A DNA stretch of 64,000 nucleotides, taken from positions 637,037 to 701,036 of the forward strand of contig JAUVXV010000001.1 in assembly GCA_030603365.1 (NCBI GenBank), written 5' to 3'. The notes beneath the pieces are model-generated. The model did not search any database. It saw only the letters and a list, made by a program, of their open reading frames with translations, and was not told the origin of the DNA. Below, one piece after another: positions 56,699-61,495 of this stretch (positions are counted from its first letter, which is position 1; each line of letters opens with the position of its first letter). A program made the position numbers and the translations under genes. The DNA is from Candidatus Heimdallarchaeota archaeon (lineage in GTDB: Archaea; Asgardarchaeota; Heimdallarchaeia; Heimdallarchaeales; Heimdallarchaeaceae).

Positions 56699-57985
56699 TC
56701 ATTTTTCTATTCCTTTTCCTGCGAATGCATTTATCCATCTTGAGAATATTCCCATCTTTTCTACTTTTGTTACTTCTCTCATCATTGACAATTCATCTCC
56801 CATCCCATTTACTCTTTTCTCCACCCAATCCCATTCACTCATCGCTTTTACCAGTTCCACTACTATTGGTGTCTCTAGGAAATCTCTTACTCTCTGTCCT
56901 TCTCTCCCGAATAGTGTGTTTGGCATCATTATCTTTGTATCAAAGAAGCTTTCCAGTACTTTTTGGGAATACTCTCCTTCTCCTCCAAATGTTCCTGTTG
57001 TTCTTCTTATTTTCACTTTTACTGGATCTTCGTTGTTGTTTATTGTTGGTATATCTAGTCTGAATACAACTGCTGTTGATGCACTGAATCCGTTTTGCTG
57101 TATCGTTCCTGCTAGCTGTTTTAATGCTTCTATATCTAGTTCTCCCATCCCTCTACTTACATCTAGATTTTGGCTTGTTCTTACCATATCCACTATTATC
57201 TCTCCTATCGTTCTCTCCGCTTTGTACATGAAGTCCATATAGATGAACAATTTCATTGCTGTTGCTAGTTTTGCCGCATCTACTCTTGTTACTAATAATC
57301 CATTTCTATGTAATTCTCCTTCCCCTGTATATTGTTTCATTCCTTTTGTTGGTGAATATGCTTTTTGTATGAACTCTATCGCTTGTTGTATATCCTCTCT
57401 TAATCCTTTTACTTCTAGTATTTTTGCTGTCACTGGATGGTCAATAAATGATAACACTGTTTCGTAATGCTTCAACATTAGATGATTAACCATTGGATTT
57501 CTTCCTCTTTTACTTCCCTTGAATTGGAATGCTGCTGTTGTTTTGATTATATCTATATTCCTGAGTATATCTTTATTATCTAAATCTAGAAATGCTTGGT
57601 ATGGTAAAAAGAAAACCGTAACATCTCCATAAGTTCTTTCTATTTTTATCATTTTATTTTTAACTAGATGATATAATTCTGGATTCTTTGATAACTCGTC
57701 TTTTAGATAATCCCTCATTAGTTCATATTTTATTACGTTGAAATATTCTCTCTTTGATTCATAACCTTCATAAGGAGGTATCATATCATCAAAGTATTTT
57801 TGTAATCTTCTTGTCACTTCTTCCTTTACTTTTATCAACTCTCTATCTAGTATCTGTGTCATTGTTTTCGATTCTGTTACTTTTTGATTTGGTATTGTTA
57901 ATCCTGTTTTGAATATCTCTTTGTAGTAACTTCCTACCATATTTTCTATCTTCTTCATAATCTCTCCACGTTGAAAAATCTCCAT
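56699..57985 (-). CDS. hypothetical protein
   Basis: 428-aa ORF with strongly purine-biased coding strand; no motif recognised. Confidence 0.7.
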   Translation of the reverse strand: MEIFQRGEIMKKIENMVGSYYKEIFKTGLTIPNQKVTESKTMTQILDRELIKVKEEVTRRLQKYFDDMIPPYEGYESKREYFNVIKYELMRDYLKDELSKNPELYHLVKNKMIKIERTYGDVTVFFLPYQAFLDLDNKDILRNIDIIKTTAAFQFKGSKRGRNPMVNHLMLKHYETVLSFIDHPVTAKILEVKGLREDIQQAIEFIQKAYSPTKGMKQYTGEGELHRNGLLVTRVDAAKLATAMKLFIYMDFMYKAERTIGEIIVDMVRTSQNLDVSRGMGELDIEALKQLAGTIQQNGFSASTAVVFRLDIPTINNNEDPVKVKIRRTTGTFGGEGEYSQKVLESFFDTKIMMPNTLFGREGQRVRDFLETPIVVELVKAMSEWDWVEKRVNGMGDELSMMREVTKVEKMGIFSRWINAFAGKGIEK

Positions 57986-58321: not shown

Positions 58322-58388
58322 TGGAGCTAGCTCAATTCTAAAATCGCATTATTGCGACATGATCGAAATGAAGAACATCACTAGCTCC
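58322..58388 (-). ncRNA. putative small RNA, GGAGCUA-stem family copy A
   Basis: 8-bp terminal IR GGAGCTAG/CTAGCTCC; 62/70 identical to 63771-63840; minus-strand TTTTAATA at 58411-58418. Confidence 0.6.
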
Positions 58389-58528
58389 TATCATCTCTCA
58401 TTATTACTTCTATTAAAATCTATTTCCACCAATAAAATTAAGTTAGTATTCTCTCTCGATTCTTCTCTTGTCACAAAGTATTATAGTTCTTTTTTTACCA
58501 AATTCTAGCTATATTTAAGCCACAGTTA

Positions 58529-60064
58529 GTGGTAAAAAAACAAAAAATGATCGAAATGAAAAACAAACAAATAATTAGTATATTATTAACCGCTACAGTT
58601 CTTTTCTCCATTATTATGTTGTTTCCAACATTAGAAGTATGGGGAGAAACTGGTAATTCTGTCACAATACATAGTCCAAATGGAACTACAGAAGTGTTGT
58701 TTTACAACAAATTAACTGTGAATTTCACAGTTGAGAAAGGAGACCCTCCATGGATCTATACTGGTGCTGATATTTATCTCAATAACATAGCTGTTGACTC
58801 AACAACAGATGGTCTGAGCTCTCCTTTTGTCAAAACCTACTATCCTGAAGGTTATGCAGGCACTTACTATGTTCGAGTTACAGCACACTTTGTTAAAGGG
58901 TGGCAAGATACTGAAGATGTTACAACCTCCAAAGGAAACGTAGTTAAGAACTCTGAAGATACATCAGATGTTGATGATTTAAGAATCGACAAACTCCACG
59001 ACTATGAGTCTAACAAAGGCTATTTAGATGGATCTGGTGTTACTATTTGCATCATTGATGATTATCTAAGGTGCGATAACAAAACTAATACTGCTTTTCA
59101 TAAATCTATGTATAAGTCTGGTAAAAATGATTTATACGAAGATCCAGAAAGGAAATTTATAGATATAAAATACTATGAATATAATTTTACTGATCAAGAT
59201 TTTTATGAATACTGGGAACCAGAGACAGATACAAAGGAAGAAAAATGGATAGAATTGTTCGATGAAGGGCAAGGAAATTATTCAACAGACACAGATCTGC
59301 ATGGTACTTATTGTTTTGCTACTTTGCGGCAAATAGCTCCTGCAGCTAACTATATTTTCATTTCAACACGAGATGATGCGGTGAAATTAAACAGCTCAAT
59401 ATATTGGCTATATGAAAATTACCTTACCTTAGGTATAGATATTATTAGTATGTCTGTAGATGGAACTTTGCTCTGGGAACCTATTTTAGAAGAAATAGTA
59501 GCTAATGGAACAATTCCTGTCATTGCAGCTGGAAACGGAGGTTTACAATTTAATAATTCAGAACAAATTATTTATCCCTGTTCTTTGAATTCTGCAATTG
59601 GTGTTACAGGAGTACCCGATAGTGATTACTCTAATGAAACATTAAGATGGAAACAAGAAGACATATTAAATCATGGTTATGGAATAGATATAGCATCAAT
59701 TTCTGAAGCAACAAAATTGGATTGGGAACCAGTTCAAGGTATTGATGAGTTTAGGGGAACAAGTAATGCGTGTCCTCTAGTTGCAGGAACCATTGCTCTT
59801 CTCGAACAATATCAAAATAACTACAAATCAAGTACAGATTTGAATGTAACGATAGTTCAAAATCTTTTTCAGAAAACGGGGGATGCATCTGGAAGCGCTC
59901 CAAGCCAACAAGGCACTACTATAAGTGGCAGTTACGACTGGTTAGCAACAAATTATACCGGATATCCTTATCTAGATCATGTTACGGTTTATTCCGATTA
60001 CAAACTCGGATGGGGGATAATGGATGGTTATGAACTATTTCAGTATTTTAGGAATAATTATTAA
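58529..60064 (+). CDS. secreted divergent S8 subtilase
   Basis: Signal peptide; ICIIDD, LHGTYC, AAGN, GTSNACP; likely start at ATG 58547 or 58556. Confidence 0.85.
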   Translation: MVKKQKMIEMKNKQIISILLTATVLFSIIMLFPTLEVWGETGNSVTIHSPNGTTEVLFYNKLTVNFTVEKGDPPWIYTGADIYLNNIAVDSTTDGLSSPFVKTYYPEGYAGTYYVRVTAHFVKGWQDTEDVTTSKGNVVKNSEDTSDVDDLRIDKLHDYESNKGYLDGSGVTICIIDDYLRCDNKTNTAFHKSMYKSGKNDLYEDPERKFIDIKYYEYNFTDQDFYEYWEPETDTKEEKWIELFDEGQGNYSTDTDLHGTYCFATLRQIAPAANYIFISTRDDAVKLNSSIYWLYENYLTLGIDIISMSVDGTLLWEPILEEIVANGTIPVIAAGNGGLQFNNSEQIIYPCSLNSAIGVTGVPDSDYSNETLRWKQEDILNHGYGIDIASISEATKLDWEPVQGIDEFRGTSNACPLVAGTIALLEQYQNNYKSSTDLNVTIVQNLFQKTGDASGSAPSQQGTTISGSYDWLATNYTGYPYLDHVTVYSDYKLGWGIMDGYELFQYFRNNY

Positions 60065-60186: not shown

Positions 60187-60897
60187 TTAGAGCTTCATCT
60201 TTTGTTTATAGAGCTTGTAGGTGGCGGAAATTAGAACTAATGTAAAAAAAACAGCTGATGTTACTTGAGATGTTTTGTTTGTATCTTGTGTTTGTGTAGA
60301 AGTAGGTGTGGGGGTAGAAGTAGTTGTAGGTATGAAAAATATTTCAGTTTCATTGTTGTGTTCATAGATATAAACGATTCTGCTTTCTAGAACATAGATG
60401 CGCATTTTTTCTATAATTACAGGAACAGTAACATAACTGCAATTAGTGTAATCAAACCAGATGATATACTCTCCTAATGGAGGGTACTCATTAACATATT
60501 GATCAACTATAATTACAAACCTATAGAAATCATCATGAATTCCAGGAGTAATAGAGTAGCTACCTTCTACCCATTCAATGATAAATAGTAATTCTGCTTC
60601 TAAGCTATCATCAACCAGATTGGCTTCCAGATATGGAAAAGGATATGGACCACAGGCATAATATACAATGATGTCTGATGAAGTGGGATTCTCAATTTGA
60701 AGAGATATATCAAAACCGAAAGCACTATAATTTTCGTCTTCAAAGATAGATGTTTCAGGAGGGAAACTAGCATCCACCACTCTTATAACTAAATTTTCCT
60801 CATCAGACTGAACTTGTACAGAACCATGAAGAATAAATGAAATAGATAACAAGGTGATTATCAACCACTTCTTCTTACGATTCATTTTCATGCTCAA
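60187..60897 (-). CDS. secreted protein with Thr/Pro linker and C-terminal anchor
   Basis: Signal peptide, PTTTSTPTPT linker, TM plus basic tail. Confidence 0.75.
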   Translation of the reverse strand: MSMKMNRKKKWLIITLLSISFILHGSVQVQSDEENLVIRVVDASFPPETSIFEDENYSAFGFDISLQIENPTSSDIIVYYACGPYPFPYLEANLVDDSLEAELLFIIEWVEGSYSITPGIHDDFYRFVIIVDQYVNEYPPLGEYIIWFDYTNCSYVTVPVIIEKMRIYVLESRIVYIYEHNNETEIFFIPTTTSTPTPTSTQTQDTNKTSQVTSAVFFTLVLISATYKLYKQKMKL

Positions 60898-61065: not shown

Positions 61066-61194
61066 GGAGCTACCTTACTAATCAATTGCAGTCTTTCATT
61101 TGCAGTCTTTCGCCAAGACAAAGGGATGAGAACAGACTCAATTGTTAAACACCTGTTATGCTAGGTTTCATTATTTAGCTCCACGTTCTCATCC
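61066..61194 (+). ncRNA. putative structured RNA, GGAGCUA-stem family long variant
   Basis: GGAGCTA/TAGCTCC terminal stem, several nested stems, TTTATATA at 61037-61044. Confidence 0.55.
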
Positions 61195-61273: not shown

Positions 61274-61495
61274 ATGAGTGAGTATTCCAATTATAAGCTT
61301 GGCAAGGTTGATCTTGAGACTGAGAAAGCTTATCTTGCTTTTGTGGATAATTTCACTGATAGACCTATCTGGGTTCCTAAGTCTGTTGTTGGTCCTGATA
61401 AGTTTATCAAACAATGGTTCATCGACCTTAAAGATAAGGAACTCAAGGATTTTATGAAACCCAAGAAACAGTCAGACTTAGACCAATTTATCTGA
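61274..61495 (+). CDS. small virus-type hypothetical protein
   Basis: ETEKAYL...IWVPKS pattern typical of small phage/virus beta proteins; T-ending codons. Confidence 0.6.
   Translation: MSEYSNYKLGKVDLETEKAYLAFVDNFTDRPIWVPKSVVGPDKFIKQWFIDLKDKELKDFMKPKKQSDLDQFI

Follow-up and report, generated by a model that had tools for sequence, protein, structure and literature searches.

In plasmid kissing-loop antisense RNAs, for example CopA/CopT and RNAI, a hairpin makes contact through a loop seed, and helix extension follows. These RNAs are transcribed from the strand opposite to their target and are complementary to it by construction. The Asgard hairpin RNAs described here are likewise predicted to present a loop seed, but they are separate genes in which complementarity must be maintained. 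In the divergent type I antitoxin RNAs of E. coli (IstR-1/tisB, OhsC/shoB, OrzO/zorO and AgrB/dinQ), RNase III cleaves the duplex, pairing takes place 5' of the initiation site and the toxins are small and hydrophobic (PMC4147584). The Asgard loci share with them a divergent, non-overlapping RNA gene, whose product can pair over about 20 nt with the 5' part of the target mRNA, and an encoded RNase III. However, the predicted pairing of the Asgard RNAs spans both the Shine-Dalgarno region and the AUG, it would be directed at large secreted proteases in an archaeal host, and the same scaffold is used for target families that are unrelated to each other. An earlier note on the same DNA had suggested a logic similar to that of a type I antitoxin. 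The adjacency of antisense RNA and target gene agrees with the type I toxin-antitoxin class, but the targets do not: they are S8, C14 and C13-like exported enzymes of 350-520 aa and not small hydrophobic toxic peptides.

In Methanosarcina mazei, sRNA162 is a single RNA whose unstructured linker masks the ribosome-binding site and which has both cis and trans targets (PMC3510493). The present RNAs resemble it as archaeal small RNAs that base-pair, here by prediction, at the ribosome-binding site of cis and distant targets; they differ in forming a multi-copy hairpin family with locus-specific guides that co-vary with the targets. An Asgard Argonaute, HrAgo1, is also on record (10.1101/2023.12.14.571608), and the hairpins resemble eukaryotic pre-microRNAs in size and shape (60-70 nt, imperfect), in having a 20-26-nt guide on one arm and in the presence of RNase III. 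They do not pass as a microRNA-like pathway: an RNase III-family enzyme is present, but no Piwi-domain protein that could serve as Argonaute effector was found in the source genome or in five other carrier genomes, all six incomplete, and processing would cut away the loop, where the best-matched part of the RNA is located. Neither this RNA family nor a regulatory base-pairing RNA in Heimdallarchaeia turned up in the literature searched.

Copies A and B and the protease start

The window, i.e. the entire stretch of 64,000 nt of the source genome (G000) that was analyzed, holds two close copies of the RNA gene, A and B (Table 1). The earlier note had pointed to an exact 14-mer shared by copy A (58359-58372), the start of the adjacent S8 subtilase gene (58547-58560) and copy B (63809-63822), to its extension to 18 of 19 identical positions (58359-58377 versus 58547-58565), and to the location of most differences between the copies outside the 14-mer. 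All of this was reproduced; the copies differ at 8 of 70 positions, 7 of which lie within 58340-58358. Throughout the 3.65-Mb genome the 14-mer is confined to four RNA copies and the S8 gene start at 58547. The longest exact match between the RNA interior and its own 450-nt flank is 14 nt, while none of 1500 random 450-nt genome windows contains an exact match of at least 13 nt to the copy A interior. Among about 14,000 candidate starts the own target of copy A ranks first by alignment score, with shuffled guides scoring equally, and by duplex energy it is 9th of 3156 ORFs. Judged alone and genome-wide the copy A match is therefore borderline and not exceptional, and the evidence lies in proximity and in the co-variation across the family.

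The RNA is encoded by a gene of its own, 158 nt away from the target site and not overlapping it, and in the predicted fold the guide is mostly unpaired (mean 0.79 across the 14-nt core). A promoter on the minus strand, as had been proposed, is supported by the family: a TATA-like box is found 27-31 nt 5' of the stem in 18 of 19 members. Since this distance is fixed while the spacer sequence varies, the strand is fixed as well and the RNA is antisense to the mRNA.

Table 1. Features of the window around RNA copies A and B
Feature	Position	Strand	Remarks
Small RNA gene, copy A	58323..58388	-	66 nt, 9-bp terminal stem, imperfect hairpin; fold z-score -4.1
Copy A guide	58359..58377	-	RNA nt 12-30; antisense to mRNA -9 to +10
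Copy A TATA box (58411-58418) and BRE-like purine run	58411..58427	-	Putative, from fixed family spacing with variable spacer
Probable protease promoter and short leader	58490..58546	+	Suggested by homology to paralogue leaders
Target site	58547..58565	+	Shine-Dalgarno-like ATGAT 58547-58551, spacer, start codon 58556, three codons
S8 subtilase, secreted, 502 aa	58556..60064	+	Pfam PF00082; signal-like N-terminal segment; Asp/His/Ser catalytic motifs intact
Convergent partner gene	60187..60897	-	About 236 aa, signal-like N-terminus, C-terminal membrane anchor, no Pfam family
Element C, longer relative	61066..61182	+	117 nt, stem GGAGCUA/UAGCUCC; divergent from partner gene
Small RNA gene, copy B	63773..63838	-	Guide 63801-63825
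Copy B TATA box	63861..63868	-	
Leader of the S8 paralogue of copy B, with TATA box 63945-63952	63945..64000	+	Target site from 63996; gene continues on contig C7 or C13

The RNA had been described as complementary to two candidate AUGs of the protease, whose homologues carry names from Heimdallarchaeaceae or other Asgard records. In paralogues, the first ATG or GTG is out of frame or has an in-frame stop after it, and it resembles the complement of the 16S 3' end from the same genome. These sequence features indicate that the protease starts at the second AUG, at 58556, and that the first ATG is a Shine-Dalgarno element, so only one of the two is a start codon. With this start, the copy A RNA would cover the Shine-Dalgarno element, the spacer, the AUG and three codons. 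The probable promoter has a degenerate TATA box (58490-58497) and a second TATA-like box (58512-58519), and the leader contains a 5' hairpin (58520-58532) followed by an A-rich stretch in place of the seed target.

A convergent gene of 216-242 aa was present 3' of the S8 gene in 7 of 8 look-ups. This partner family has conserved CGPxPFP and EWVxG motifs and is nearly always convergent with this S8 clade. An Atlas search with the 236-aa partner returned only weak surface-protein look-alikes (<0.9), and the prediction of a complex with the S8 protease scored 0.28 (mark 0.32) and was given no weight in either direction. The source genome has at least seven paralogues of the partner, some without a protease. 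Two other ORFs of the window are a 428-aa protein without Pfam family (56699-57985, minus strand), which recurs as a remnant next to the G007:C78 member and as a paralogue close to the degenerate copy, at C1:345 kb, and a 68-aa ORF (61529-61735, minus strand) that resembles an isolated MCM zinc-finger fragment.

Copy B had been thought to act in trans on the protease of copy A. Contigs C7 and C13 both begin with the 131 nt that close the window, and the end of C14 likewise runs identically into them. An S8 paralogue belonging to copy B starts just past 64000, so that action in trans is not needed. This gene, which the earlier note had proposed to inspect for the 14-mer at its start, has a perfect 13-nt match to that part of the RNA in which B differs from A. 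This indicates from the sequences that the 'variable' 19 nt are the main seed of the family and that copy A is the odd member. In copy A the loop keeps the ancestral seed, the leader of its gene has turned A-rich at this site with loss of the seed match, and a new internal hairpin in the predicted fold leaves the AUG-matching 14 nt unpaired. Among the G000 paralogues, RNA A is predicted to bind its own leader alone and the B-type RNAs to bind all leaders, including that of A.

In the source genome there are four full close copies (A, B, C2:44392 and C14:344748) and a truncated one on C9; an S8 paralogue adjoins each of these five (5/5), and as assembled only the paralogues of A and C2 are intact. 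More distant are a copy at C1:340026 and a degenerate one at C1:342.7 kb. At the former locus (C1:340026-341916) the RNA has a 14-nt match on a decayed start site, 5' of a small ORF with Cys codons and of a radical-SAM gene that is split; these could belong to a peptide-modification cluster. Element C has the same terminal stem and lies 5' of a multi-copy 73-aa ORF (61274-61495). Further copies of it are found at C9:127.35 kb and C7:2.7 kb and a partial one at C2:47.2 kb, and the part of it that looks like a guide is similar to the G020:C4 RNA. Further intergenic hairpins, with this stem or a GAAGCUAGC stem, occur in the source genome (C1:362730-362817, C14:57326-57382, C14:114741-114792 and C14:124881-124958), in G007 (C88:4463 and C91:59623) and in G003 (C5:9593); no target was identified for any of them. 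A target search across the source genome for element C and four GAAGCUAGC-type hairpins gave nothing above shuffled controls.

The RNA family and its co-variation with gene starts

The family, its promoter spacing and hairpin, the guide-target co-variation and the distant targets have been shown computationally. Members are hairpin RNA genes of 55-72 nt with the stem GGAGCUAG/CUAGCUCC. Within the genus, a covariance model built from 12 copies detected members in 9 of 24 further genomes; in the order, 22 other genomes gave no hit. In 83 class genomes the exact stem pattern, which diverged stems would escape, matched only in genus g1 (Heimdallarchaeaceae). A pattern scan of metagenome contigs yielded 119 matches, none a genuine member by the covariance model, and an Rfam scan of the window gave no match. 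RNA and gene are divergent in 18 of the 19 pairs analyzed. The neighbors are mostly secreted proteases of unrelated families, namely S8 (two clades), caspase-like C14 and C13-like; some members match non-protease genes, and for the G014 member no target was identified. Several S8 and other protease homologues, among them some intact S8 genes, have no RNA adjacent. A 55-nt RNA, L272 (G020:C4:46527-46581), matches the start of a 186-aa gene without Pfam family, located in an inserted-looking region beside an aspartyl-tRNA synthetase-like gene. A second hairpin scaffold with the stem GAUGAGUGG/CCACUCAUC was found in the source genome (C15:84442-84500 and C1:250604-250662) as well as in G020 and G023. 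It has the same promoter layout, the guide in its loop has a match at the start of the secreted C13-like protease gene next to it, and the two G000 copies show a one-base compensatory change.

The comparison of 19 RNA-gene pairs from 9 genomes shows that the variable middle of the RNA follows the Shine-Dalgarno/AUG region of its own gene. A symmetric alignment score puts the own target at the top, alone or in a tie, for 15 of the 19 pairs; in the other four, near-identical paralogues score higher. The diagonal score of 666 compares with a permutation mean of 393 and maximum of 534 (200,000 permutations; p<1e-5), where p-values overstate the case because the pairs and start codons were partly picked by the match and related loci are non-independent. 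In six close loci, nine AUG-anchored columns have changed in guide and target alike. Of eight model hits in other genomes that were outside the training set, five match the adjacent gene and one a protease gene 2 kb upstream; the other two lie beside a gene with a deleted 5' end and in a place without local target. Six new loci outside G016 that were found protein-first included two with an RNA matching the gene, both from metagenomes, three without RNA and one with insufficient flank. A test for G-U wobble was neutral overall (16 wobble-type versus 16 opposite-type mismatches). When split post hoc, the counts favor wobble upstream of the AUG (13:3, p=0.02) and are reversed downstream (3:13), where a single inherited scaffold position dominates. 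The antisense match at the translation-initiation region is conserved, with compensatory change, and the co-variation with the neighboring gene start, for which the earlier note had proposed to test the family, was found.

The match spans about -20 to +10 around the AUG, 3' of the TATA box. Its longest perfect part measures 8-15 nt; in most cases this part extends across the apical loop and would pair with mRNA positions -20 to -4, and it is more exposed than the remaining interior (0.56 vs 0.41; Wilcoxon p=0.0003). An RNA folds better with its own 3' arm than with a swapped one (p=1e-4), so the passenger arm tracks the guide. Predicted net binding, with the own folding of both molecules subtracted, comes out negative for 19 of the 20 own pairs and near zero in most other combinations; it is modest, ranging from 0 to -11 kcal/mol, with -7.3 kcal/mol for copy A.

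One subgroup lies 3' of a metallophosphoesterase gene and has no local target. In five genomes a match to its guide is found on another contig, at the start of a gene for a 40-aa coiled-coil protein; it comprises up to 26 consecutive pairs if G-U is included. In G004, both contig ends are at least 20 kb away from the RNA. These RNAs, which have low model scores (23-39 bits), were assigned to the family by stem, size, promoter spacing and layout. Because the match to a gene on another contig recurs in five genomes, local duplication, which had been put forward as a possible source of the match, is insufficient as its sole source. The conserved coiled-coil micro-protein gene (40-49 aa) is found at L283:1512-1634 and in the source genome at C14:311474, C7:88689 and C11:66422; no matching RNA was found for these three G000 homologues.

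In three loci (G000:C9, G007:C61 and G020:C30) a deletion between guide and target fuses the 3' half of the RNA to the gene start. Both promoters are gone and the gene is broken in all three. The fusions show that the repeats do recombine; they fit, but do not prove, a need for the gene to be silent once the RNA is lost. In G020 the RNA and leader before a C14 gene are almost identical to those before an S8 gene on a metagenome contig, which means that the protease cargo has been swapped behind the cassette.

Possible mechanisms

The explanation that we prefer, with a probability of roughly 70%, is a kissing-loop antisense block of translation initiation, perhaps followed by RNase III cleavage. 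Each locus would be a divergent control cassette, in which one promoter gives a hairpin RNA of about 65 nt and the opposite promoter a short-leader mRNA for a secreted protease, followed by the gene for a second exported protein. In or beside its apical loop the RNA would display 8-15 nt complementary to the Shine-Dalgarno region. After the initial loop contact, pairing could spread along the 5' arm of the RNA across the AUG, and the resulting imperfect duplex of 19-26 bp would block ribosome loading and may subsequently be cut by RNase III. The terminal stem would serve as constant scaffold while guide, passenger arm and target evolve jointly. The cassette would be re-used before S8, caspase-like C14 and C13-like proteases, with some members acting at a distance. 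That the RNA is transcribed, pairs in vivo and acts by repression, not by activation or processing, is inferred, as are the part played by RNase III and the reason for tight control.

The NYN RNase and the ArsR regulator encoded between the two copies had been named as candidate protein partners. Their homologues adjoin none of the 19 related loci and they were dropped; one ArsR paralogue of the source genome lies beside the degenerate copy at C1:342.7 kb. At the 19 loci no conserved protein gene accompanies the RNA other than the target cassette. Three Sm-like proteins are present in the source genome, as is a bacterial-type RNase III with intact signature and a dsRNA-binding tail (G000:C11:129334-129705, minus strand). 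Of the 83 class genomes 50 encode RNase III, which was not detected in any of the archaeal controls. It is unlinked to the RNA and much more widespread, and as a partner it is a candidate only.

A special case of the preferred explanation is that the RNA is a true antitoxin: the proteases would be secreted weapons or self-harmful, the downstream gene would encode an immunity protein or inhibitor, and the RNA would act as a second lock. The divergent layout with about 20 nt of complementarity, as in tisB-IstR-1 (PMC4147584), is in agreement with this, as are the multiple cassette copies, which sit in different places of the genome with exchanged protease genes and a partner gene that is conserved 3' of them, and the loss of the gene promoter and broken gene at loci where the RNA is deleted. 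However, exported enzymes of this size are not small membrane peptides, intact S8 homologues occur without adjacent RNA and other members target non-protease genes, and we consider it possible but doubtful. It is quite improbable that the matches are a DNA-level relic, i.e. short direct repeats kept alike by slippage or gene conversion beside an RNA with another function or none. The three recombined loci and the neutral overall wobble test would agree with such a relic. Yet matches to a gene 2 kb off and to genes on other contigs are hard to reconcile with it, the match always falls on the Shine-Dalgarno/AUG region and is loop-presented, with a passenger arm that tracks the guide, and the promoter is retained at fixed spacing. 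A MITE was rejected as well, given a promoter that sits at fixed spacing beyond the inverted repeat and the lack of an evident target-site duplication.

A constant scaffold with a variable guide of about 20 nt, and deletions at the guide-target repeat, could also be expected if the RNA guides a protein to DNA, either to repress transcription in a CreA-like manner or to direct recombination as with TnpB or IS110. This is very unlikely, since the targets are translation starts within the transcript and not promoters, and no conserved protein gene is found beyond the target cassette. In the source genome, which is 89% complete, no Cas6 (one Pfam family searched) and no IS110 recombinase were detected, and its one Nop-domain protein is encoded beside none of the RNA loci; on these grounds IS110 bridge RNAs and TIGR-Tas were rejected. 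A crude repeat scan revealed no CRISPR array near the RNA loci, and the CreA-type logic that had been suggested for copy A is not supported. Least credible is a degenerate box C/D or H/ACA modification guide that targets mRNA starts by chance or design. In copy A, UGAUG follows the 5' stem and UUGA precedes the 3' stem, and archaeal guides are similar in size and hairpin shape, but the C/D motifs vary freely across 16 members, CUGA is present at that place in no member and there is no Rfam match. The single continuous guide strand is not the two-sided pocket of an archaeal H/ACA guide, and ACA follows the stem in just 2 of 12 aligned members. Of the earlier scaffold-plus-guide proposal the core is supported, namely that a variable guide on a constant scaffold is antisense to the region where the protease starts; the two AUGs, trans action of copy B, NYN and ArsR partners and CreA analogy are wrong or find no support.

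Meaning for Asgard archaea

The hairpin RNAs beside secreted proteases point to a gene-specific RNA silencing system in a group of Asgard archaea. A more far-reaching version, which we regard as unlikely, is that the hairpin is a re-targetable silencing scaffold that gains new guides by copying gene starts and forms with RNase III a protein-light, microRNA-like system; this would hold secreted protease weapons in check and could be turned on distant genes as well. The family offers about two dozen natural guide-target pairs on one scaffold, which makes the pairing rules directly testable. Antisense control linked to secreted proteases suggests an unrecognized need to keep these enzymes off, related to competition or self-damage. 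Heimdallarchaeia are close prokaryotic relatives of eukaryotes. The RNase III found across the class would gain a candidate substrate, which bears on hairpin-based silencing before eukaryotes.
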